Source: a virus. From it: a DNA stretch of 64,000 nt. Where the stretch lies: the IMG/VR virus record IMGVR_UViG_3300045282_000112, positions 20,384 through 84,383 of that record, one strand, 5' to 3'. The position numbers and the translations under genes are program-made. The stretch's first letter is position 1, and the number at the start of each line of letters is the position of its first letter. The notes under the pieces are model-generated. The model was not told the DNA's origin, did no database searches, and was given only the letters and a program-made list of their open reading frames with translations. Positions 3,001 to 44,716 of the stretch are shown here, in pieces.

Positions 3001-4848
3001 CTTGCTGTAGGCAATCGAGGCCGAGCCGTAGCGTGACGTGGGGATGATGCCGGTCACCAGATCGGCGGCGCTGCCAGACGTGGCGATAGCCGCGAGAGGA
3101 CCGGTCGAGCCGCCGAGGTTGAGCATCGCGCGCACCTGCGCGACGGTCAGCGGGTAGGCCGTCAGGTTGCCGCCGCTGACGTTGCCGATGATGGTGTCGG
3201 TGGGGATCACCACCATCTTGCTCAATGGGATGGTGCCGGTGCCGTAGCGGGCTTGTGGGATGGTGCCGGTCACCAGATCGGCGGCGCTGCCCGTGACAGC
3301 AATGGTCGCCAAGCCTGCACCCGGCGTGGCGATGCCGAGCATCGTCTTCACCTGTGAGGGGGTGAGCGGATAGGGCGACAAATTGTTGCCGCTGACGTTG
3401 CCGAGGATGTGGTCGGTGGAGATCACCACCAGCTTGTTCAGCGGTATCGTGGCTGCGCCGTAGCGGTTGACGGGGATGAGGCCGACGATCAGGTCAGCGG
3501 CGCTGCCCGACGAAGCAATGGCTGCCAACTGCCCACCCAGCGTGTCGAGGCCGAGCATCGCCTTGACCTGTGCAACGGTCAACGCTACCGGCGCGAGAGG
3601 GGTGGTGCCGGTGTTGCCGAGGATGGTGTCGATTGGAATGATGTGCAGCGCGGCCAGCGGCACCGTGCCTGCCTGATAGCGTGCCGCTGGGATGTAGCCG
3701 CTTGTCAAGTGCGCGGCACTGCCCGAGGTGGCGATAGGAGCCAGCGTGCCGGTGCCGTCGCCGGTCCCGCCACCCGACAGGTCGAGCATGTCCCTGACTT
3801 GTGCGGCAGTGAGCGCGACCGGTGAAGCGTTGGCACCGCTGACATTGCCGAGGATGCGGTCGTGGGCGATCACCGCGAGCTTGGCATAGGGCAGCGAGTG
3901 GTCGGCGATGATGTTGACCGGCAGCGTGCCGGTCAGGTTGGCAGCGTTGGTGCTGGTTGCGAGCGGACCCACCGCCACGCCGTTGAGCATGATCTGCGCA
4001 CCAGCATTGGCACCGCTGCGCAGCACGAGATCGCCCGCCGCCGTCGCGTGCGTCGAGCCGTAAGCGACGATGTAGGCACCCCGCGAACTGTCAAAGCCGC
4101 CGGGTGCCGCCGACAGGCCAATGTAGCCGGTCGTGGCCGCGCCGCTCTTGATCGTCATCAGGACGACGGGAATGCCGGTGGTGTTGGAGGTTACCTGCCC
4201 GCCGTTGAAGACCAGTGGTTGGGCACCCAGCAGGGAGAGCGTGGTGAAGTCGAGGTAGGGGCCGACCAGCCCCAGCGTCGCGCGCATCGCGGGGAAGGTA
4301 GCGTCGTCGAGCAATTGCCGCGCGCTCGGCGTGAACGGCGTCAGCGCCATCGTGCCGGGGCCGGTGAAGTAGCCGAGCGTGTTGGCAGCCGAGACGAGGT
4401 TGCCGAAGGCGATGACATTCGGCTTGCCTGCGGCGGTGATGCCGAGCGCCGTCTGCCATGTCGCGAGGTTGGCGTGCGCCATCAGGCCGCGCGAGAAGGC
4501 GGTGGCCACGAACGTCGTCAGCGAGGCGGTCGAGGTGCTCGACCAGAACGGCACCTTGTCGGCACCCGGGATGATGGCTTGCAGCGCCGCGAGGTTGCCG
4601 GTGAGAGCTGTCGTGCCCTTGACGATGGCTTGCCGCAACAGCGTGTCGTCGCCCTCCACGTCGGGGATGGCGAAGTGATCGATGACGTGCCTGATCTGTG
4701 CAATGATGCCGTTGAAGTCGTGGTCCCGGACCTCAGTGTTCAAAGGGTCGGAATACCAGCGGCGCTGCGCAGCACCGCCTACCGGCGCGACAGGACGCGT
4801 TGCCGTAGAATGGTCTTTGTCGGCAGGATTGAGAACGCCGATTGGCAT
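1..4848 (-). CDS. Long tail fibre protein (>1616 aa, runs off the left edge) with about 14 tandem ~72-aa repeats
   Basis: Not in the ORF track. ATG at 4848 after AAGGGA gives MPIGVLNPADKDH...; LAALQAIIPGADKVPFW-type fibre motif; SGSA(T/A)DL repeats every ~216 nt; near the edge GDKGGGTLNAQVAVYD...LTC in the same frame. Lies directly after the baseplate genes. Confidence 0.88.
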   Translation of the reverse strand, partial: MPIGVLNPADKDHSTATRPVAPVGGAAQRRWYSDPLNTEVRDHDFNGIIAQIRHVIDHFAIPDVEGDDTLLRQAIVKGTTALTGNLAALQAIIPGADKVPFWSSTSTASLTTFVATAFSRGLMAHANLATWQTALGITAAGKPNVIAFGNLVSAANTLGYFTGPGTMALTPFTPSARQLLDDATFPAMRATLGLVGPYLDFTTLSLLGAQPLVFNGGQVTSNTTGIPVVLMTIKSGAATTGYIGLSAAPGGFDSSRGAYIVAYGSTHATAAGDLVLRSGANAGAQIMLNGVAVGPLATSTNAANLTGTLPVNIIADHSLPYAKLAVIAHDRILGNVSGANASPVALTAAQVRDMLDLSGGGTGDGTGTLAPIATSGSAAHLTSGYIPAARYQAGTVPLAALHIIPIDTILGNTGTTPLAPVALTVAQVKAMLGLDTLGGQLAAIASSGSAADLIVGLIPVNRYGAATIPLNKLVVISTDHILGNVSGNNLSPYPLTPSQVKTMLGIATPGAGLATIAVTGSAADLVTGTIPQARYGTGTIPLSKMVVIPTDTIIGNVSGGNLTAYPLTVAQVRAMLNLGGSTGPLAAIATSGSAADLVTGIIPTSRYGSASIAYSKLALIPPDTILGNTLVNLGPPVALTVGEIKAMLGITGGPGLADIAASGSAADLIAGIIPAARYGTGTITWAKLAIMPVDTLLGNTASSPAAPVALTVADVKLMLGIASLGSNLAAIASSGSAADLITGTIPAARIAVGEIALNKLTVISAATILGNNGAAAASPKALTVSEVKAMLGVTAGTVMAAIATSGSAADLIAGSIPAARYANGTIALARLVVIPTHTIIGNDGATAAEPQALTVAEVKTMLGIATLGSNLAAIASSGSADDLVVGTIPAGRYAAGTIALSRLSVIAPNMLLGNAGAANASPAALTVAQVRTMLNLGGSSGTLSLIATSGSATDLIAGYIPGARFADHTILLAKLALIPPDTLVGNTLTVNAVPVPLTVTEVRAMLNLGGSTGTLAAIATSGSAADLITGYIPVTRIADHSLVLGKLAVQAANTILGNNTAGAIAPIALTVAQVRAMLDLSGGGGTATLAKIATSGSATDIITGTLNNQRLPDAGVMLNKLQAIATAHILGNVSGTSKSPYQLTAAEVKTMLGLDTAGSGLAKIATSGSATDLVTGTINNQRLPDAGVMLNKLAAITTAHILGNVSGTTKSPYQLTAAEVRIMLGIGGATGAPLAAIASSGSATDLITGYIPVARYADASIPFARMVKIAAARVIGNVGTATDYAQTVSMDQLHAAMALKQFARSTDLQYGTGTLANARLPLAGVTLDRLVPIAPNHVLGNVAAGNASPIQITAAQLSTMLGGLKAFATSTDMVHATGSLKLARLEPVLADRMIGNFTTATAPPVVVSKGQVIGWLDCMLNNPSVITAVNSIQTNWFLALSTAAGTGASPAYVIRRTMATPVLGNLGYISFQGNNAAKANVTFGEIMIYTTNLTSGAHASKMYLRTFNAGVATNVMTLGLGVQVGNPVGTDKGGGTLNAQVAVYDSGVALTCMAMQSEFLSGAIGVDLDKWDKIAVAGNGKQHEAAHHFAKLLKQGVDPRDPKKFITKMREMQALP
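900..3960 (-). repeat. Tandem coding repeat, ~216 nt / 72 aa unit, about 14 copies
   Basis: ggc(a/g)ctgcc (reverse of G-S-A) recurs near 1120, 1339, 1555, 1777, 1993, 2209, 2425, 2638, 2854, 3067, 3283, 3499, 3715, with a degenerate copy near 3943. Confidence 0.9.
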
Positions 4849-31262: not shown

Positions 31263-32970
31263 TTGCCCGTTCCCCTATCGCCCACACTGCGTCCAGCACC
31301 TTGTCGTGCGTGATCTTGTCGGCGTTGTAATCCTTCCACAACGCTGCGATCTCCGCATCGTCGGCCTTGTTGAGATTGGCGAACAGGTCGCGCTTCACCA
31401 CCCAGATCACTGCCTGCATCTGGTTGGGCAGCAGCGGCGGCTTCTGCTCGGCGGCCAATTGCCGATACGCCTCGGCGTATATGCCGTAGGTGCCGAAAGC
31501 ACCGTAGCGGTTGCTGTCCTTGGCGGGCTCCCAGCCCTCGGGCTTCACCGACGGGTTGTTGGCGAGACCCTGCGAGACGGCGGGCGCGCCACCCGGGTAG
31601 GGCTGCATCCACGCTGCGCCGATAGCGTGCGTATCCATGGTCACGTCACCGTCGAGCCCGTCGGGGTCGAGGATGTTGTTGTAGAAATTGCGCACCTTGT
31701 GGACTTGGCTGAGCGCCTCGCTGATCTGGATGCGGTCGCCGTTCGCCATCAGCGCCGCCACTGCCGCGCCCGTCGCCTTGGTGTTGTTCCAGCCCGCCTT
31801 CGACTTCGCGCCGACTTCCTCGCCCGTATCCGGGGCGTTGGTGTGGAAGTCGCCGAAGGTGCCGTCGGGATTGTAGATGCGGAAGCCATGCCCGCCGTTC
31901 TGCGCGGGGTCGCCATGCGCCTCCTCGTAGGCGCGTATCCACAGGCCCTTCTCTTCGGCGCTCTCGCACTCAGCCAGCGTCTTGCCCACAATGGACGGCA
32001 GCATCTTCACCATCGGCGGCGTCTTCTTGACCTTGCCGGTCTCCCGCAGCTTCTTCTCGGCGGACTTCGCCTCGTCGCTGACCAGCTTGTCGGCGAACGC
32101 CTGCATGCCGTCGTCCCAAGCATGCTCCTGCTTGGTCATGTAGATGTCGATCAGCTGGTCGCCGAGATATATGTTCTGATCCCAGTCCTTCTGCGGCGAA
32201 AGTGCGGCGTAGACGGCGGCGACACTGGCGTCGTTCAGGCCATACTGCTTGACCTTGTGATCGACGATCTGGCGCGCGCCGCGATACCAGTTGACCGCCG
32301 TAAGCTGCGCTGCCGTGGCCTTGCCGAGCAGGTAGTTCATGTTGGTCTTCATGATGCGGATGGCGTTGTGCGCGATGTCGTTGGCGCTGCCCGTCAGCAT
32401 CTCGGGCCGCATGCCCGGGTAGAAGTCGGGGTTCTTCATCAAGTCCATGTTGGCGCTGAAGCGGCCCTTCGTCGTGCCGTCGGGCAGCTTTACCGGGTCG
32501 TCCTCGGTGCGCTGCATCTGCGCGAGGTCGTTCTGGACGTAGGTGTTGTCGCTGTTCTGCGTCTTGAACTTGGTCGAGGTGACGCTGGGGCTGATCTTGG
32601 CCGGGTGCGACGTGGGCTTGGTGCCGCTGATCCGCTCCTTCGGATAGGAGTGCGTGCCGGTCGCCGTTGCCGTCTTCTTGACCGCCTCGGCCTTTGGTGT
32701 GGCTGCCTTGCGCTCGCTGCCCGCCTTCTCGCTGCTGCCGCCGCTGCTGCCGCCACCCGTCGTCCACTCACCCTGCTCGTTGCGCGGCTCGTCGGGATCG
32801 TAGTCGGCGATGACGTGCTTCGGATGCTCGGCGGGCACGAGGAACAACACCTGACCGTCGGCGAAAGTCACCTTGGCGAGCGCATGGTTCTCACGGCTCG
32901 CGGGGCTCCAATCCGACTTGACGTAGGCAACGGTAGCGCGCCGTCCGTTGATCTCCAGCTGCTCGATCAT
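31246..32970 (-). CDS. 574-aa effector-like protein: small N-domain, tag motif, HhH-GPD glycosylase-like domain
   Basis: ATGA overlap at 32970; NWY.GA...AALSPQKDW..N, KVRNFYNNI, VTMDTHA, AEAYR...QMQAVIW. Confidence 0.7.
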   Translation of the reverse strand: MIEQLEINGRRATVAYVKSDWSPASRENHALAKVTFADGQVLFLVPAEHPKHVIADYDPDEPRNEQGEWTTGGGSSGGSSEKAGSERKAATPKAEAVKKTATATGTHSYPKERISGTKPTSHPAKISPSVTSTKFKTQNSDNTYVQNDLAQMQRTEDDPVKLPDGTTKGRFSANMDLMKNPDFYPGMRPEMLTGSANDIAHNAIRIMKTNMNYLLGKATAAQLTAVNWYRGARQIVDHKVKQYGLNDASVAAVYAALSPQKDWDQNIYLGDQLIDIYMTKQEHAWDDGMQAFADKLVSDEAKSAEKKLRETGKVKKTPPMVKMLPSIVGKTLAECESAEEKGLWIRAYEEAHGDPAQNGGHGFRIYNPDGTFGDFHTNAPDTGEEVGAKSKAGWNNTKATGAAVAALMANGDRIQISEALSQVHKVRNFYNNILDPDGLDGDVTMDTHAIGAAWMQPYPGGAPAVSQGLANNPSVKPEGWEPAKDSNRYGAFGTYGIYAEAYRQLAAEQKPPLLPNQMQAVIWVVKRDLFANLNKADDAEIAALWKDYNADKITHDKVLDAVWAIGERANARKS

Positions 32971-35405
32971 CTCAGGCGGCCTTGCTTTACCAGCTCCTTG
33001 TAGGTCTTCTTCACGTCCCGGTAGTAGCTGTTCCAGCTCGGCGTATGCTTGACGCTGCCCAGCTCGTATTCGAGGCGCGCCATCTCGGCCATGGTCTCGT
33101 GCATGCCCTGCCGTGTGGATGCGCCACTGTGCTTGACGGCGTTCCACCACTCGGTCGAGTAGTCGGTGAGCCCGTCCTCGTCGGCCAGCTTCTGCCAGTT
33201 CAGGTTATGCTTCACGAAGCGTTCGTAGATCGGGAACTGCTTGTCGTAGGGCGGGGCGAGGCTGCCGTCGGGGTGCATCCATCCCTTCCACGGTTTGTCG
33301 GGGTCGGGGCCCGGCTCGTTGACGCCCGGCAGCGCCTTCTGCATGGCCTCGCTCTCTGCCTGCAGCGCGTCCAGCACCTGCTGATACTGGATGTGCATCA
33401 CCTCGTGCGAGGTGACGCCCGCGATGGTGCCCGAGTTCAGCTGGTCGGGGAACATCAGCACGGTGCCACGCTTGTGGCCGCCGGGTGGCTGATCCATCGA
33501 GTAGGCCATGCCCGCCGCCATGTATTCCCGCCCGCCCAGCACGAAGCGCGCGTCGGAAGGCTTGCCGATCATCACCGTCTTCGGGTCTGCCCCCAGCTCC
33601 TCGGCGACGTTGCGCGCCTCGTTCAGCGTGTGGTGCACGCCCATCAGGGTTTCGCGGGATGCCCAGACGTAGGGGTCCTCGCTCATCGGCGGGTTGACGA
33701 CGTAGGCGCGCTGCAGCTTCTCGGCCTCCGACCATGAGGTGACGCGCTCGCCATCTGTCCGCGCGTAGCGCTCGCCGCGCTTGGCGTAGAGGGTGGTGAC
33801 GTGCTCCGGGTCGTAGCTCATCAGCACGATGTCGGGCTCGCCCTTGTTGAATTTGGCGAAGGTCTCCTTATTCCAGCCGTCGGGCTTGAAGGTCTCGTTC
33901 CACGGCAGGCGTGCGGCGGCGCGGAAGCCCGCCTCGGCGTAAGCCTGCGGCAGCACGGTGTCGAAGCAGTCGAGGCGTCGGCCGCCTTGATCGACCGCCA
34001 GCTGCAGCGCCGACAGGGCGAAGTTGTCCACCTTGCTGTCGTGGTGCTTGAACACCGAGACGATGTTGTCGCCGTCGAGCGCGAAGCCAGCCTTGCCGTC
34101 GAGCGTCGTGAACAGCCGCAGCTTGCGATAGTCGTCGGGGTCCTTGATCTCCACCGCCGTGCCGTATTTGGTCGAGGCGGCAGCCGCTGCGATGGCGTCT
34201 TGCAGATCGCGGAAGTCGGTGCCCGAGCGGATCATGCGGGTGTTCAGCTCTTCGAAGTGAGCTGGCGTCGCCTTGTTGGTCTTCAGGTAAGCCTTAAATC
34301 CCGGCGTCGGCCGGAAGATCATGCGCCCACCGCTAGTAATTGCTCTAAAGCTTCTTCCTTTGTAAGGCTTGGATGAGCTGACAGGACTTCGCGGAGGAGC
34401 TGGTGCATACGGGGGGTTAGACCCTGCTCCAGCATGCGCCGTGCCTGTTCCTCCAGTGGCGGCCGATGCTCCTCCTCCTGATCCTGCAGCCGAAGGTGAG
34501 CCCCCGCCGCCCCCGCCGCCTTCTCCGGTCCATTGTCCGCCGCCCTCTTCCCCTGCGGGAACTCGCGGTTGGTCTGGGTCATACGCGTCAATCCTCCTGC
34601 TGTCGCTGCTCGCGGCGGCGACACGCTTTTTCAACTCGGTCCAGTGCAAAGTGACACTGGGCGCGACGCGTATGCCGCGCCCCTGTATAAGTGGGGTGCG
34701 GGCGATCACATCGCCACGGTATACGTTAACAATATCGTCGATTGATACACCGCCGATGACCCCTACCTCGTTTTCTGAGGTGCCCTGCACACGGCGCAGG
34801 CGCTCGTCGACGGGTTGCCGGATGGCGATCACGTAGGCGGGCCGGTCCCAATCGGCCTTCTGCTGCTGCGGCGCGAAGCTGCTGGCGTAGGACGCTGCCA
34901 CGCTCGGGTCAGTGGCGTAGTAGGTCAGGCCCTTCTGCGCCTCGCCGATGTTGTATTCGCCCTTGCTGCGCACCTCCCCCGTCGCTTGGATGGCTTCGAA
35001 CTCGGCCGCCGCCATGCCCCGGTAGATGATACCGGCAGAGCGTGCGCCCGGAAGGTCGCCCTGATGCGGGGCAGTCGGGATCAGCTGGTCATGTTCCATG
35101 TCGACCGGCTTGCCCTCATACTCCAGCACCATCCGCTCGTGGCGGTAGAAGCGTGGGTCGTAGTGACCTATCGTGTCGCGGTTGGCTTGGTAGGGCACCC
35201 GCTTCTCGGGTCCTGCAGGCGTGAAGCCTCCCTCGCCCGAGGTCCACTGCCCCGACGGGTCGCGTGGCTGGTCGGGATCGAAGTCCTGCCACCGCTGCAG
35301 CCGCTGGGGCGGGCTGTAGGGCTCGCAATCGAAATGCGCTACCCAAGCGTCCCGAAAGCGGCTGGCGCGCTCCAGCAGGGCTGCAGGGGGCAGGAAAAGG
35401 CTCAC
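32967..35405 (-). CDS. 812-aa polyvalent protein: ART-like, GNAT-like and zincin metallopeptidase domains
   Basis: GTGA overlap start at 35405; YRGM...TYYATD...ENEVGV; DNIVSVF...GGRRLDCFDT.LP..Y...GF; HEVMH...TDYS...HETMAE. Confidence 0.72.
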   Translation of the reverse strand: MSLFLPPAALLERASRFRDAWVAHFDCEPYSPPQRLQRWQDFDPDQPRDPSGQWTSGEGGFTPAGPEKRVPYQANRDTIGHYDPRFYRHERMVLEYEGKPVDMEHDQLIPTAPHQGDLPGARSAGIIYRGMAAAEFEAIQATGEVRSKGEYNIGEAQKGLTYYATDPSVAASYASSFAPQQQKADWDRPAYVIAIRQPVDERLRRVQGTSENEVGVIGGVSIDDIVNVYRGDVIARTPLIQGRGIRVAPSVTLHWTELKKRVAAASSDSRRIDAYDPDQPRVPAGEEGGGQWTGEGGGGGGGSPSAAGSGGGASAATGGTGTAHAGAGSNPPYAPAPPRSPVSSSKPYKGRSFRAITSGGRMIFRPTPGFKAYLKTNKATPAHFEELNTRMIRSGTDFRDLQDAIAAAAASTKYGTAVEIKDPDDYRKLRLFTTLDGKAGFALDGDNIVSVFKHHDSKVDNFALSALQLAVDQGGRRLDCFDTVLPQAYAEAGFRAAARLPWNETFKPDGWNKETFAKFNKGEPDIVLMSYDPEHVTTLYAKRGERYARTDGERVTSWSEAEKLQRAYVVNPPMSEDPYVWASRETLMGVHHTLNEARNVAEELGADPKTVMIGKPSDARFVLGGREYMAAGMAYSMDQPPGGHKRGTVLMFPDQLNSGTIAGVTSHEVMHIQYQQVLDALQAESEAMQKALPGVNEPGPDPDKPWKGWMHPDGSLAPPYDKQFPIYERFVKHNLNWQKLADEDGLTDYSTEWWNAVKHSGASTRQGMHETMAEMARLEYELGSVKHTPSWNSYYRDVKKTYKELVKQGRLR
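34319..34582 (-). CDS. Nested out-of-frame small gene (87 aa) inside the polyvalent-protein linker
   Basis: AGGAGG 10 nt before ATG; helical C-terminus LLREVLSAHPSLTKEEALEQLLAVGA; stop overlaps an in-frame ATG of the host gene. Confidence 0.6.
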   Translation of the reverse strand: MTQTNREFPQGKRAADNGPEKAAGAAGAHLRLQDQEEEHRPPLEEQARRMLEQGLTPRMHQLLREVLSAHPSLTKEEALEQLLAVGA

Positions 35406-36166
35406 AGAGCGAACAGCTCCTCCCACATCGCCTGCGCGTTGGCGAGCGCTTGCGTGGCAGTAGGCCCGCTGCCGAGGCACCTGCCAGTGTGCATGGCCAC
35501 GAAGCTCTCGGCTTCGAACTGCTCGCGGCTGTCCATGGCGTAGGGTGAAACGGCGTCCTTGTCGGCGTAGCGGGCGACGATGGCGTCAACCACATCGGGC
35601 CCGTGCGCGGTGCGCAGCTCCTGCATGAGGATGTGCCCGAACTGGTGCAGGAGCGTGCCGTCGGCGCTGCTGTCGACCATCAGGCCCTTCCACTCACGCT
35701 CGTGTGCAGCGAGCTGGTCGGGGTGCCACTGGCGGGCGTTGAGGATAAGCTTGCCGTCGCCCGCCAGAACGAACTCGCGGTCGCCGAGGTCGCGCATCTC
35801 GACCTTGATGGGGCTGTCGATCAACGGGGAATAGTCCTCCGCGAGCTGGTCCATGGCGTCCTTGGCGTTGAGCTTGGCCTCGGTCTGCTTCATGCGGTAG
35901 CTGTAGCTCGGGCTGCCGTCCGGTCGCACGTCCTCCTCTTCGCCTGCGTCGTCGGGTTCCACGTCCCATTCGAGCAGGTTGTGCATGGGCATGGCGAGGT
36001 CGGAGGCGTTGAACGCGCTCTCCGGGCCCCATGTGCCCGTGCGGTTCGACCATGCGCTGATGACAGTGGTCTCTGGATTGCGCACCTCGGCGGCGCGGAA
36101 CTGCTCGCCCTGCGGGGAGGTGACGTTGTAAACCCGCCGTGCGTTGGGCGGTCTGTCGGCGGCCAT
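35402..36166 (-). CDS. Protein with N-terminal acidic domain and degenerate zincin (HQFGH)
   Basis: AAGGA RBS; LILN, TLLHQFGH, VSPYA...QFEAESF. Confidence 0.7.
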   Translation of the reverse strand: MAADRPPNARRVYNVTSPQGEQFRAAEVRNPETTVISAWSNRTGTWGPESAFNASDLAMPMHNLLEWDVEPDDAGEEEDVRPDGSPSYSYRMKQTEAKLNAKDAMDQLAEDYSPLIDSPIKVEMRDLGDREFVLAGDGKLILNARQWHPDQLAAHEREWKGLMVDSSADGTLLHQFGHILMQELRTAHGPDVVDAIVARYADKDAVSPYAMDSREQFEAESFVAMHTGRCLGSGPTATQALANAQAMWEELFAL

Positions 36167-36200: not shown

Positions 36201-38594
36201 TCAGCAGTCCTTCTGCCAGCCGCAGCCGTCACCGGAGCGGTTGTAACCCTCGACGTATCCGCGCTCCGAGGTCTTCTCGATCTCGTCGATGCGCGCCTCC
36301 TCCTCGGGGCTCTTGTTCTCCTTCGCCACGAGCACGCGGCGCTCCTCGTAGAGCTGGTGACCCTCGCCGAACTTGTATTCGAGCAGCGCGTGGGTGTTGA
36401 ACTGCAGCTCGGTGACGATGCCGTCCTTGGTGCGGAAGTTGAGCATCAGGTCACGGTAGCCTGCCATGGGGGTGAGGAAGCGGTCCTTGACGCGGATCAC
36501 GTCGTTGTTTTCGACGAAGTCCGCCACCGCCTGACGCACGGTCACGCAGTCGTCGAAGGCGACGGTAGCGCGCAGCACATCCTTCAATCCCTCGGGTGGC
36601 ACCTTCTCGTCGCGCATCTTGCGCTCGGCCGACGAGCGCGCCTTCATGGTGCGGGTGCCGGGCTCGGCACTGGTAGCGGGCGGGTAGGTGACCTTGCCGC
36701 CGAACTTCTGTGCAAACTCCTCGACCGTGCTCATGAACTCAGGCTCGGCGGTCTTGCAGGCCGCATACAGCTCGTCGATGTCGTTGGTCGGCTGTATCTG
36801 CTGATCCGGCGGCTGGTAATCCGCGCCCATGTTCTGCGCGATGTCGGTCTTCTTCGCGACCGTGGCCGTGCCCTTCGACTGCGGCGCGGTCTGGGTCTTG
36901 GTGCTGCCGGTAACCTTGGTCTCGCTGCTGGAGCTGCCGCCACCGCCGGGGCCGAACTTGCCCTTGTTGTCGGGCTGGCCGCGCGGGTGCTTGCTCTCTT
37001 CCCACTCGTCGCGCGAGCGCACGCCGAGTAGCTGCCGCACATGATCAGGATCGTAGTCGCGCGTGTGCCGGTAGCGGCGCAGGTTGAGGCGACCGGCGCT
37101 GACCGGCTTGGCGTCACGGGTTGGCTTGCCGCCACCCTTCTGGAACGGGCTACCACCACCGGGCTTCTGCTGCCCCTGCTGGCTCGGGTGCTGGTTGCCC
37201 ATGGCGTTGCCCGCCAGCATCTCCTTGCGCTTCTCGGCCTCGGCTTGCGCTGCCTGCTCCTCGGGGCTCTGCATGCTTTCGAGCGCGAGCTGTTCCTGAT
37301 CCTCAAGCGCCTGCTCAAGGCCCGGGTAGACGCCATCCTCGATCAGCTGGTTCTGCCGCCCGATGCGCAACGCCTCGGCGTCGACCAGCCCCATCATGAC
37401 ATCAAGGTTGGTGACATCGGCCTTCAACTTGGAGACCGCCGCCTTCTCGGTGGCGGGCATCTGCCACAGCGGGTTCCAGATGTAGTAGATCGACGGGTCG
37501 CGCTTGCCCAGTGCAGAGCGGATCAGTGCATCGTCAAGAGAAGCAAGGGCGGGAGACAATACATTGGTCTGATCTGAGTTAACTCGGTCGTAGTAGTTAC
37601 GGACATCACTCTCTCCAGTAGACTGTAGTCCAGCAGGGGACTGTCCCAGCATACGTGTAGCGGGGATGTCTGCTGCACCGGAGGCGATGAGGAGATACAT
37701 CTGCAGGACATCGGGGAGTTGCGTGAAATTCGCATTGATGCGCTCCCACTCCTCCTCCTTGTCGAGGAGCAGCGTGTTGATCACCGACTTCACCGAGTTG
37801 GCATACATGAAGCGTGCGGTGAGCCGGTTCTGATACTCGGCGGTGGCGATGTTCTGCGACAAATCGGGGATTTTAATGATGTCGAACTTGCTTTCGGTGA
37901 CCAACGTCGCGATGGACTGTGTCACCAGCGTCGCCGACATCACGGCGTCCTGCACGTTCTGCAGCACGGGATCGCCCCAGATTTCCCCCATCATCACGGG
38001 GTCGGGCAGCTGCATGCCCTTCAGCACGATGACCCGCGACGGGTGTATCTGGAACTCGTCGCGCGACAGCTCGGTGCCAACGTCCATGTTGCGCGTGAAG
38101 TAGAGCGGCTTGCCGTAGAGCGGGTCCATCACGTCCTTGATGAGCGGACCCGTGCCCAGCGCCCAGCGTGAGACGGGAATGATGAACTCCAGATCGCCCT
38201 TGCCGACCTTCTCGAAATTCAGCGGCTGGCTGGCGCGTCCCTGCTTGATGCCCATGATGATCGCCGCGCCGCCGTAGAGGCGCGCCAAGATCAGCGCCTC
38301 CTTCAGCACGCACTGCACATCGAGGCGCGTCTCTTCGGCCTCCAGCTTCTCGATGACGTTGGTGTCAGCCTGCCACGCACGCCACGCGCGGGTGGCATCC
38401 TGTGCCGGGATGTCGATCAGCTTGCGGGCCAGCCAATTGGCGCGGTAAGCGCTCTCCAGCTCATACTGTGACAGCGGGTTGAACTGGAAAAACGACGCGC
38501 CCGAGGCGGCCTTGTCGCGCCCCGGCACGCCGAAGCCTGCCATGAGGTTGATCAGGCTGTCCTTGAACTCGGCAGTCACCCCTTGATAAGTCAT
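36201..38594 (-). CDS. Portal protein (DUF1073 family) fused to a C-terminal RelA/SpoT-like nucleotidyltransferase
   Basis: WLARKLIDIPAQDATR, ARLYGG, IHPSR, GAADIPATRMLGQSPAGL..TGESD, WNPLWQ; C-term K..SSAERK, KDVLRAT, GYRD, ELQFNT, GHQLYE. Confidence 0.9.
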   Translation of the reverse strand: MTYQGVTAEFKDSLINLMAGFGVPGRDKAASGASFFQFNPLSQYELESAYRANWLARKLIDIPAQDATRAWRAWQADTNVIEKLEAEETRLDVQCVLKEALILARLYGGAAIIMGIKQGRASQPLNFEKVGKGDLEFIIPVSRWALGTGPLIKDVMDPLYGKPLYFTRNMDVGTELSRDEFQIHPSRVIVLKGMQLPDPVMMGEIWGDPVLQNVQDAVMSATLVTQSIATLVTESKFDIIKIPDLSQNIATAEYQNRLTARFMYANSVKSVINTLLLDKEEEWERINANFTQLPDVLQMYLLIASGAADIPATRMLGQSPAGLQSTGESDVRNYYDRVNSDQTNVLSPALASLDDALIRSALGKRDPSIYYIWNPLWQMPATEKAAVSKLKADVTNLDVMMGLVDAEALRIGRQNQLIEDGVYPGLEQALEDQEQLALESMQSPEEQAAQAEAEKRKEMLAGNAMGNQHPSQQGQQKPGGGSPFQKGGGKPTRDAKPVSAGRLNLRRYRHTRDYDPDHVRQLLGVRSRDEWEESKHPRGQPDNKGKFGPGGGGSSSSETKVTGSTKTQTAPQSKGTATVAKKTDIAQNMGADYQPPDQQIQPTNDIDELYAACKTAEPEFMSTVEEFAQKFGGKVTYPPATSAEPGTRTMKARSSAERKMRDEKVPPEGLKDVLRATVAFDDCVTVRQAVADFVENNDVIRVKDRFLTPMAGYRDLMLNFRTKDGIVTELQFNTHALLEYKFGEGHQLYEERRVLVAKENKSPEEEARIDEIEKTSERGYVEGYNRSGDGCGWQKDC

Positions 38595-43331: not shown

Positions 43332-43820
43332 TCAGACTGCAGCCACCAATGTCACGGGGCAATGCACGCGGCTTTCGCGACCGAGGATTGACAGGAGGAT
43401 AGCGACGCGCTGCTGCGCGTCCATCCCCTCCACGATCCCGACATGATTGACAAACGGTCCATCGGTGATGCGCACCGACTGTCCCTCGCGGAAGGTGTTG
43501 GTGGCATCGGGCAGGCACACGACGCCGACCTCGTCGGCCAGCACCTGATAGCTCTCTACGATCTGCGGAGACACTTCACACGCCCTCGCTCCCATGGCCA
43601 AGACACGCAGCACGCCCATGGTGTTCTGCAGCCACGAGGCAGTGCCCTCGATATGCACAAACAGATAGCCGGGGAACAATCGCAGCGTCTTGCCCCAGCG
43701 GTCGTAGAAGAGAGGCGAGAACACCTCGCCGCCCTGTCGCACAATATGACGCGTGGCGCGGTTCTCGCACAGCGGCTGTGTCTGGGCAACTACCCAGCGC
43801 GGATGTGAGATGGCTCCCAC
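43332..43820 (-). CDS. NusG/RfaH-family transcription antiterminator
   Basis: WVVAQT.P..E, LFPGYLFV (NGN); GQSVRITDGPF...G (KOW). Confidence 0.9.
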   Translation of the reverse strand: MGAISHPRWVVAQTQPLCENRATRHIVRQGGEVFSPLFYDRWGKTLRLFPGYLFVHIEGTASWLQNTMGVLRVLAMGARACEVSPQIVESYQVLADEVGVVCLPDATNTFREGQSVRITDGPFVNHVGIVEGMDAQQRVAILLSILGRESRVHCPVTLVAAV

Positions 43821-44060
43821 CTACCAGCCATCCTCGGACTTGACGCTGGGATCGCTGTCCCTGAACGTCACGTCCTTGAAGTGCTGGCCGTCCTTGGTCT
43901 TGACGATGTCGCCGATCTCCAGCCCGCCTTGGGGCTGCTCGATCACCTCGACGCACTCGTAGGTGTCGCGCTCGATGTCGTCGATGGGGATCGGCGCATC
44001 GCTGGTCTGCTGAACAGCGCCGTCCTTCAGCGCGATCTTGGCGTAGAGCTTGTCGCCCAT
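43821..44060 (-). CDS. Hypothetical protein
   Basis: GGAGGGAG RBS before MGDKLY. Confidence 0.6.
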   Translation of the reverse strand: MGDKLYAKIALKDGAVQQTSDAPIPIDDIERDTYECVEVIEQPQGGLEIGDIVKTKDGQHFKDVTFRDSDPSVKSEDGW

Positions 44061-44135
44061 GTGCTCCCTCCCAGTGGGTTGCATGGGCGGATGGCTTATG
44101 TTCGAAAACGAACAAAGGCAACCCCGTAGGTATAC

Positions 44136-44411
44136 CTAGGCGGCGGCGGGGCCGTCGTCCCTCGGGTTGTTGCGCAGCCACTCGTCGAAGTCCTCGAACG
44201 TGCCTCCCTTGAACGTGCCGCCCCGCTCCAGCCGGTCGAAGGTGGCGCGCACCTCCAGCTTGGTGCGGAACAGGTCCAGCTCGCGCTGCATCCTCGGCCA
44301 GCTCTTGGTCTCGGGCACCAAGCCCATCTGCACCAGCTTGGCGTATTCGTGCTTGATCGCGAAGATGATGCCCTCGCGCGTGCGCGGCATCAAGCGGACA
44401 ATCTCGCCCAT
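44136..44411 (-). CDS. Hypothetical protein
   Basis: AGGAGG RBS before MGEIVRL. Confidence 0.6.
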   Translation of the reverse strand: MGEIVRLMPRTREGIIFAIKHEYAKLVQMGLVPETKSWPRMQRELDLFRTKLEVRATFDRLERGGTFKGGTFEDFDEWLRNNPRDDGPAAA

Positions 44412-44716
44412 CAGGTGTCCTCCTGCTTGCGGCGGTCGGAGAGCAGCCGCACCCGCGCCACGACGCTGCTGTTGAGCGCCTGCGTCGTGTGGGTCGGGTT
44501 GCGCCATGCTGTCGCCCCAAGCCACCCCGCCAGCCCCCTGATGTCGACGCTGAGAGTGCATTCGGCGGGACGCGGCTCATCCTCACCCTTTACCCAGACA
44601 CTGATGCGCTGGGTGATGACGACGCGCGGATGGCTTTCAACGTCGTTCTCCCCAAGCGGCTCGCCGCTCTCGGCGTCGCGCAGCTTCGGCTCAGGGATGC
44701 TGATGGTCGTGGTCAT
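44411..44716 (-). CDS. Hypothetical protein
   Basis: Coupled ORF. Confidence 0.55.
   Translation of the reverse strand: MTTTISIPEPKLRDAESGEPLGENDVESHPRVVITQRISVWVKGEDEPRPAECTLSVDIRGLAGWLGATAWRNPTHTTQALNSSVVARVRLLSDRRKQEDT

Follow-up and report, generated by a model that had tools for sequence, protein, structure and literature searches.

Can the disordered linker of a phage effector protein serve, in a second reading frame, as a gene in its own right? The question is raised by a locus within a 64,000-nucleotide stretch of viral DNA (hereafter, the window), itself part of an 84,383-base IMG/VR virus record (IMGVR_UViG_3300045282_000112), where an open reading frame (ORF) of 87 codons lies in the +1 frame of an 812-amino-acid gene of the polyvalent effector type (Table 1). 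The ORF coincides with a low-complexity linker that joins an ART-like and a GNAT-like module of the host protein and that is preceded by a short tag motif; all features considered here are on the minus strand. A preliminary description of the window, made from its letters alone, had proposed that a hidden, overprinted gene resides at this site and would have been missed by annotation. That proposal is very probably correct, as the product of the ORF falls into a conserved family, related ORFs are nested in the same manner at six other loci, and the pattern of substitutions is that of the nested frame.

The nested reading frame and its protein family

In the main frame, the start region of the ORF reads AGC AGG AGG ATT GAC GCG TAT GAC, in which two AGG arginine codons make up a Shine-Dalgarno-like AGGAGG, followed after a 10-nucleotide spacer by the +1-frame ATG (34582-34580). 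The nested frame is open for 103 codons from stop to stop, with a GTG at 34624, and it closes with a TGA that overlaps a main-frame ATG. These elements, down to the uncommon AGG codons and the overlap of stop and start, had been pointed out in the preliminary description and were all reproduced in the sequence, as was a local turn toward AT-richness: the GC content dips to 0.51-0.54 (90-nucleotide windows, 34280-34429) as compared with 0.63 for the window as a whole. The start signals are unusual. None of the 50 in-frame Arg-Arg pairs in the reference genes of the analysis is written AGGAGG, and the TAT that creates the nested ATG is a minority tyrosine codon in the same genes (72 TAT vs. 240 TAC). 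Copies of AGGAGG have an ATG 4-12 nucleotides downstream in 11 of 36 cases on the gene strand versus 1 of 11 on the other strand, and the phage therefore does make use of this signal. No promoter-like site was found near the nested start in the window, and RNA structure around that start is not significant (z = -0.88). An inverted repeat at 34601-34623 (10 pairs, counted on the plus strand) ends 3 nucleotides upstream of AGGAGG; the corresponding minus-strand RNA folds no better than its shuffles.

Table 1. Features of the nested locus, with positions counted from the first letter of the window
Feature	Position	Strand	Remarks
Host gene, polyvalent-type effector	32967..35405	-	812 aa (amino acids) as called (P0003)
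Host protein module order			Leader, tag, ART-like module, tag, linker, GNAT-like module, zincin-like module
Shine-Dalgarno-like AGGAGG	34593..34598	-	Two AGG Arg codons in the main frame
Main-frame tag motif YDPDQPR...GGGQW	34530..34583	-	Overlapped by the first codons of the nested gene; precedes modules in homologous polyvalent proteins
Main-frame Gly/Ala/Ser/Pro-rich linker	34323..34529	-	Putative dual-coding partner of the nested gene
Nested gene (putative), 87 codons + TGA	34319..34582	-	+1 frame of the 812-aa gene; TGA at 34321-34319
Nested product, N-terminal ~40 residues	34463..34582	-	Predicted disordered (pLDDT about 50), not conserved; overlaps the tag motif and a Gly run
Nested product, C-terminal three-helix domain	34322..34459	-	HPxLTREEALE-type motif, here HPSLTKEEALE
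ATGA	34319..34322	-	Nested TGA overlaps main-frame ATG 34322-34320; present in 1 of 7 nested loci, not conserved
GNAT-like module	33678..34322	-	Residues 387-601 of P0001; predicted partner of the nested product

The frame offset was also compared with independent assemblies, namely Logan contigs from independent soil studies. A contig of run X2 (independent study, 620 nucleotides) spans 33960-34579 with four substitutions and no gap, and a contig of run X3 (a third study, 231 nucleotides) spans 34430-34660 with no difference at all. A sequencing or assembly indel as the source of the offset is ruled out by these gap-free contigs together with the same offset in six other loci. Within the gene, X2 departs from the window at 16 positions, 14 of which are synonymous in the main frame, each difference being weak when taken alone, given single contigs of depth 3.4-8.1. 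One of the two exceptions, at 34442, turns a linker threonine into alanine as read in the main frame and is silent in the nested one, where it falls at the beginning of the folded domain; the difference at 34518 is synonymous in the main frame and alters the spacer of the nested ORF.

By homology, the last ~45 residues of the nested product belong to a conserved, unannotated small-protein family. A phmmer search of 1.84 billion cluster representatives with the 101-residue open frame returned two proteins that match the window ORF at their C-termini, P0018 (166 residues, E = 8.5e-14) and P0019 (66 residues, E = 2.4e-4); a further candidate, P0020 (E = 8.9e-4), is a repetitive protein that matches the low-complexity spacer only, and it was dropped. 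A profile of five tails finds 25 proteins of 29-117 residues, 7 of them at E <= 1e-3. In an alignment of 28 sequences, P, E, and E are invariant, and L, T, R, A, L, E, and G nearly so. Most of the 28 members stop one or two residues after the conserved glycine, five having short tails, and the window ORF, which ends G-A-stop, matches this rule. The C-terminal motif of the family, hydrophobic-L..(V/I/M)(L/M)..(H/N)P.LT(R/K)EEALE.(L/I/M)...G, is satisfied by LLREVLSAHPSLTKEEALEQLLAVG of the window. When the window ORF was aligned by hhalign with a profile of six free-standing members, from which it had been excluded, the match reached E = 1.7e-6 (probability 90%). The conserved part is predicted by AlphaFold2 to form three helices (residues 42-53, 57-69, and 75-84), with a predicted local distance difference test score (pLDDT) of 82-92 per 10-residue block over residues 42-84, in keeping with the early impression that the ORF ends in a protein-like segment.

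Neither a name nor a fold could be assigned to the small domain. Pfam, PHROG, and NCBIfam models gave no match to the small domain, apart from a sub-threshold PF01984 match for the window ORF, and Pfam gave none for the family members at L004, L006, P0018, and P0019. The best Foldseek match of the small domain in the PDB has an E value of 3.3, the weak rows including UBA, CUE, and RuvA-III bundles; a sequence-profile search of the PDB reached E = 0.11 at best, and the ESM Atlas returned no usable match. In longer proteins, the tail profile found P0018 only among up to 8000 candidates.

Some members occur outside a nested setting. On a contig of a Propionibacteriaceae metagenome-assembled genome (L006), the motif stands at the C-terminus of an ordinary 145-residue protein without an overlapping frame. 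At L016/L017, one sequence filed twice (GC 0.35; 2743-3183 of L016), the domain ends a free-standing protein of about 146-150 residues whose N-terminus is Cys-rich and endonuclease-like (phrog_2340, E = 1.3e-6), and no GNAT-like module lies within 3 kb. P0018, from a 3,739-base JGI metagenome contig, carries the tail in frame after a different domain: over its N-terminal 64 residues it shares 45% identity (E = 3e-16) with the N-terminus of the 254-residue gene product encoded upstream of the host gene in the window (35402-36166), and its spacer is an off-frame reading of the tag motif. Searches for loci related to P0018 and P0019 in viral contigs, metagenome contigs, and a genome scan found nothing.

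The nested layout in other phages

The nested arrangement recurs well beyond the window. For the lineage of the homologous protein P0008, all three tail queries match one place in two IMG/VR loci, L004 and L005, which lies in the +1 frame of a 1,127-residue polyvalent ORF, just upstream of the GNAT-like module. A motif scan of IMG/VR with the family alignment yielded eight loci, six of them nested (L005, L012, L013, L014, L015, and L018, from five lineages, L012 being in the same record as L004) and two free-standing (L016/L017). The small ORFs at the six nested IMG/VR loci measure 63-115 codons from stop to stop, and the giant ORFs that enclose them, 1,132 to >2,034 codons in length, are in a frame one base behind the small ORF, as in the window. 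A tblastn search of GenBank phages with the window ORF gave no match; the ORF of L015 alone led to Limnohabitans phage DC33 (L021, PQ492659.1), where the small ORF, at complement(27566..27781), lies in the +1 frame of an annotated coding sequence (CDS) of 9,378 nucleotides (3,125 residues). In the GenBank record of DC33, the enclosing CDS is a "hypothetical protein" and the small ORF carries no separate annotation; the family goes unannotated when nested because standard gene callers forbid nested genes on the same strand. A +1 layout of the Rz/Rz1 type is thus found in the window, L005, L012, L013, L014, L015, L018, and L021.

Three observations on these relatives may be added. A feasibility scan for hidden tails in homologous linkers singled out P0010 (29 of 41 columns) and P0008 (28 of 41), and the hidden tail of P0008 was borne out in DNA by the L004 lineage. 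The P0010 linker (~608-650) shares the main-frame island SGAY..GSP.D with P0008, its 29 of 41 is the highest value apart from that of the window's own protein, and it probably harbors another nested copy. L004 and L005 differ at dozens of sites and by several indels in the inserted domain upstream of the nested gene (2730-3113 of L004) and are identical from 3114, across the nested gene, up to a single difference at 3527, a sharp mosaic boundary that suggests recombination. The taxonomy line of the DC33 GenBank record reads Inoviridae; the published description gives the phage an icosahedral head and a 32-nm tail and places it in the Caudoviricetes (PMC12195039).

The downstream neighbor of the nested ORF is conserved as well. 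A tblastn search with the GNAT-like module of the window found a downstream match at all six nested loci tested (L012, L013, L014, L015, L018, and L021), with E values of 1.85e-42 to 6.2e-25. The alignments begin 21 to 183 nucleotides after the nested stop (93-165 in L012, L013, and L014), and the module start inferred from them lies at or before that stop in L012 and L018; in six further phage loci, then, the GNAT-like module starts within about 60 codons of the nested stop. The same query matched neither of the two free-standing loci, and ART-like and zincin-like queries matched none of the seven loci searched, a set that did not include L021. It is thus the GNAT-like module, rather than the ART-like one, that is conserved next to the nested ORF. 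Homologs of the ORF do recur beside the same domain, as a tBLASTn check proposed in the preliminary description was to reveal, and of the two partners entertained there, the downstream GNAT-like domain is upheld by the six loci and by the complex model described below, whereas the upstream ART-like domain, for want of any match in seven loci, is not. At the level of sequence, these comparisons show that seven phage lineages, with GC contents of 0.45 to 0.68, have kept both the nested +1 layout and its placement immediately before the GNAT-like module.

The substitutions among these loci bear on which frame is under constraint. Over a 27-codon core compared in seven loci (21 pairs), the nested frame has a mean amino acid identity of 0.50, as compared with 0.28 for the main frame and 0.275 for the third, and it exceeds the main frame in every one of the 21 pairs. 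Nucleotide differences, sorted by nested-frame codon position, number 233/163/320. The wobble position of the main frame, which is nested position 2, is the least variable, the opposite of what selection on the main frame would lead one to expect. For the loci compared, the pattern shows purifying selection on the nested frame. Close full-length relatives of the host protein suitable for a synonymous-site test were not found, its 15 matches being related domain-wise only.

Base composition and pairwise comparisons point the same way. Over the nested stretch, all 7 loci have a higher GC content at third codon positions (GC3) in the nested than in the main frame, the nested value being near the genome level in most: 0.78 versus 0.48 in L014, where the gene has 0.86, and 0.61 versus 0.36 in DC33, where the CDS has 0.61. 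The products of the 71-codon ORFs of L014 and DC33 are alike from their first residues, with a BLOSUM score of 169 versus 107-108 in the other frames. When the tag region of the window is compared with that of P0018, 7 of 9 nested-frame differences stem from a single change at nested position 2, which leaves the tag residues as they were (P = 2.5e-4). Judged from these alignments, constraint on the main frame coincides with the part of the nested product that is predicted to be disordered, and constraint on the nested frame coincides with the linker of the main product.

Host protein, predicted partner, and rival explanations

The host gene belongs to a window whose genes lie mostly on the minus strand and in which a run of effector-type genes follows the portal gene (PF06381); it is located two genes downstream of the latter, and its ORF is open further back, to GTG 35480, for a total of 837 residues. 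The 812-residue protein, searched as a whole, has no Pfam family at E <= 0.1. Its ART-like part, residues 104-283, is 41.8% identical (E = 6e-31) to a "large polyvalent protein" of Planktothrix phage Pag-Yong1, and residues 389-586 match the giant hypothetical protein of DC33 and "minor capsid proteins" of Microbacterium phages; the zincin-like label is taken from an HEVMH motif alone. Metagenome homologs have single modules in common with the host protein, between which that short tag motif and linkers rich in Gly recur, and their linkers between tag and GNAT-like module are of like length and composition. In the window, the main-frame GC3 of the linker is 0.30-0.50 versus 0.81 for the whole host gene. 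As polyvalent proteins do, the protein combines several unrelated enzymatic or effector domains in one polypeptide; it is encoded near a portal gene and is likely a virion-associated polyvalent effector, with the nested ORF seated in the linker that joins its ART-like and GNAT-like modules.

Among the neighboring genes, four-base overlaps of stop and start link consecutive effector genes: GTGA (35402-35405) connects the 254-residue and 812-residue genes, and ATGA (32967-32970) connects the latter to the next gene, provided that ATG 32970, rather than GTG 33150 upstream of it, is the start of this gene. The portal domain takes up residues 44-395 of a 797-residue protein (36201-38594), whose C-terminal half, after a tag and a linker, is a further module fused to the portal. 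A 336-residue ORF at 43576-44586 has a GC3 of 0.47 versus 0.71-0.89 in other long minus-strand ORFs and may be a wrong frame or foreign DNA.

The GNAT-like module was modeled by AlphaFold2 with a pLDDT of 75.9. All the PDB matches listed by Foldseek are acetyltransferase entries, nearly all of them single-domain GNAT enzymes and among them two N-acetylglutamate synthases and one SAGA acetyltransferase module; the best has E = 1.6e-3 (probability 1.00) and none reaches 1e-3, with probabilities of 0.60-1.00, mostly 0.9-1.0, and template modeling (TM) scores of 0.32-0.56. Residues 38-87 of the small protein were modeled together with the 215-residue module, using purpose-made, shallow alignments (5 and 8 rows). 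The complex scored 0.85 in three runs, versus 0.04 for the best of 3 controls; in calibration, the 0.85 mark was attained by 58 of 80 solved complexes and by 2 of 110 mismatched pairs, counts that are only rough given the purpose-made alignments. At least 96% of the contacts are common to the runs, and the pLDDT of the partner is at least 88. On the module, residues 92, 94-103, 121-127, and 129-130 are contacted; they belong to the loop that follows strand 86-92, to the beginning of helix 101-111, and to helix 124-130, elements which, from the textbook GNAT fold, we take to line the acetyl-CoA groove. The interface includes invariant residues of both partners (H70, E77, A78, E80, L82, and G86 of the small protein; D121, L124, and P125 of the module). 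With the support of this model, it is somewhat more probable than not that the nested product binds the GNAT-like module.

Taken as a whole, the locus is probably best explained by a real nested gene with a three-helix product that would bind the GNAT-like module and might inhibit it. One stretch of DNA would be read twice, in the main frame as tag and disordered linker and, from its own AGGAGG-N10-ATG, as a small protein. The three-helix domain would bind the GNAT-like module and cover elements of its acetyl-CoA groove. Because the contacted elements presumably line that groove, the small protein may be a built-in inhibitor, a safety catch that would keep the acetyltransferase silent in the virion-producing cell and would be shed as the effector threads its way out of the capsid. 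This inhibitor reading is plausible, if a little short of an even chance. The pattern of codon usage, detailed below, suggests that the small gene is the older reading, in which case the linker would have arisen via read-through across it. A still more specific scenario, in which a once free small gene was overrun and became a linker, and its product now plugs the acetyl-CoA groove until it is stripped off in the tail and the enzyme is armed in the next host, is doubtful in its entirety. If the product controls the acetyltransferase-like domain, the locus would show how phages keep injected enzymes harmless in the producing cell. It would also offer a clean natural case of dual coding, in which the folded part encoded by each frame lies over the disordered part encoded by the other. 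The idea is directly testable, DC33 and its host Limnohabitans sp. DCL3 being in culture (PMC12195039).

A number of observations weigh against this explanation. The inhibitor role is one that we infer, the binding rests on one model with shallow alignments, and the GNAT-like label is a statement on fold only, given structural matches just above E = 1e-3 and nothing in Pfam. At L006 and L016/L017, the small domain has no GNAT-like neighbor in the available DNA, and the gene layout of P0018 is not fully explained. Among the nested members, the window copy departs most from the rest, with S and K in place of their G and R, and over the whole 71-codon ORF, L014 and DC33 share 34 identical residues in the nested frame versus 28 in the main frame, a modest margin. 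In length alone, the ORF does not exceed chance: 8 ATG-initiated ORFs of at least 87 codons occur in the +1 frame of the 22 reference genes (11,069 codons), and the nested open stretch is the 2nd of 29 by length in its own gene, nested stretches ranking 2nd to 9th among +1 stretches across the host genes of the loci. The codon adaptation index (CAI) of the nested frame, 0.493, is above that of 210 of 225 off-frame windows and below that of 224 of 225 true-frame windows, and the last ~20 nested codons, with the rare TTA and CTA, have a CAI of only 0.40. An RNA run (X7, a 2017 soil metatranscriptome) holds two 151-nucleotide contigs identical to 34347-34635, with no other identical cover of the gene; these represent a handful of reads, possibly from DNA carry-over, and carry no weight for expression. 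No weight attaches, either, to the gap in X3 cover over 34292-34378.

The small protein could also be real and bind or accompany the GNAT-like module without inhibiting it, acting instead as a folding or packaging helper, a substrate adaptor, an activator, or a means of capsid docking. The complex model is silent on activity, and the fusion of the domain to unrelated proteins, or its occurrence as a free-standing protein without a GNAT-like gene (L006; L016/L017; P0018), is readily accommodated by such a role. Against this stands the predicted footprint on elements that presumably hold acetyl-CoA, which fits blocking better than helping, a fit that is itself something we infer. On balance, a non-inhibitory role seems unlikely, if well within reach.

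A different product would result if ribosomes made a programmed +1 frameshift in the Gly-rich linker, whereby the ART-like part would end in the three-helix tail at the nested TGA and translation would re-start at the overlapping ATG. Two GGGGG runs between tag and tail and a AGGAGGAGGAG run in the linker could serve such a shift, the ATGA junction in the window resembles the GTGA and ATGA junctions of the neighboring genes, and in P0018 the tail is read in frame behind another domain. However, each locus has a Shine-Dalgarno-like purine run and an ATG at the head of the nested ORF, their position being conserved between L014 and DC33, where 71-codon ORFs begin at an aligned ATG preceded by AAGGAGG-N6-ATG and AAGGAG-N7-ATG, respectively. 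In 5 of 7 loci, the first ATG follows an upstream nested-frame stop by 3-7 codons, and no slippery motif shared by the window and L004 was seen by eye, no formal search having been made. An in-frame main start codon at the nested stop occurs in the window only (1 of 7 loci); the re-coupling through ATGA envisaged in the preliminary description is thus present in the window and is not a general feature. These observations favor ordinary initiation inside the host gene, as far as start signals can tell, and leave the frameshift improbable. At 6 of 7 loci, the GNAT-like module lacks a start codon of its own and can be made only by translation of the main frame across the nested gene, so that the stretch is truly dual-coding if the small protein is made.

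It is quite improbable that the ORF is a relic, namely, a separate small gene that was overrun after loss of an upstream stop and remains recognizable without being translated. Codon usage, which suggests that the small gene is the older reading, would suit a relic: over the 86 overlapped codons, the main frame has a CAI of 0.343 and a GC3 of 0.44, below all 225 true-frame windows of the same length, and the same phage's three other tag-plus-linker stretches have CAIs of 0.63-0.87 and GC3 values of 0.77-0.92. The poor codons at the end of the window copy would suit it, too. A relic would decay, however, and the ORF and its start signal are intact in seven lineages from GC 0.45 to 0.68, with substitutions filtered by the nested frame in all pairs of the core. 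Last, the ORF could be open by mere chance in a linker rich in GC and in Gly/Ala, its AGGAGG and ATG being coincidental, as the abundance of equally long off-frame ORFs and the inflation of off-frame GC3 by linker composition might suggest. This reading is already contradicted by significant protein-level homologs, a nested arrangement kept even in AT-richer phages, and a confidently predicted folded domain, and its probability appears negligible.

Relation to known systems

Searches of the literature on phage overprinting and nested genes and on embedded immunity genes yielded no description of this arrangement. Iyer et al. 2017, who treat the polyvalent proteins of phages and conjugative elements, describe a phage GNAT family that typically has an ART neighbor in the same polypeptide (PMC5512222); in the main text of that paper, the words linker, overlapping, and frameshift are absent and nested genes are not described. 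Neither polyvalent proteins nor overlapping genes are mentioned in the DC33 paper (PMC12195039). The host gene resembles polyvalent proteins in being a string of conflict-type domains (ART-like, GNAT-like, and metallopeptidase-like) encoded beside a portal gene.

TacAT, AtaRT, and KacAT are pairs of a GNAT toxin and its antitoxin. As in these pairs, the small protein here is encoded just upstream of a GNAT-fold enzyme, with an overlap at the start in the window, and a block of the cofactor site is proposed. Unlike the antitoxins of TacAT and AtaRT, the nested product has no ribbon-helix-helix/DUF1778 domain and no Pfam match. In further contrast to all three pairs, its gene lies out of frame within that of a polyprotein instead of forming an operon gene in its own right, the enzyme makes up one module of a virion protein, and neutralization is a proposal only. 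In polymorphic toxin systems, immunity genes follow the toxin as separate genes. The likeness to such toxin-immunity pairs (PMC3482391) is that an effector domain travels with a small cognate binding protein, predicted as such here, that is encoded alongside; the difference is that the small gene of the present locus precedes the domain and shares its DNA with a linker.

A closer formal parallel is provided by the spanins, as in phage lambda, where Rz1 lies inside Rz in the +1 frame. In embedded spanin genes of the Rz/Rz1 kind, as in the present case, the whole of a small gene lies in another frame of a larger phage gene on the same strand, and the products are partners, a partnership that is predicted here. 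Unlike in the spanins, the host gene here encodes a multi-enzyme virion effector, the overlap falls on a disordered inter-domain linker, and the small product would be a soluble three-helix protein that binds an enzyme domain, with no membrane or lysis role. Embedded two-component spanin genes are the standard example of nested same-strand phage genes (PMC6139136, PMC5295617). Nested phage genes as such are thus already known; what is new, if the modeled complex is correct, is a nested gene whose product partners a domain of its own host protein.

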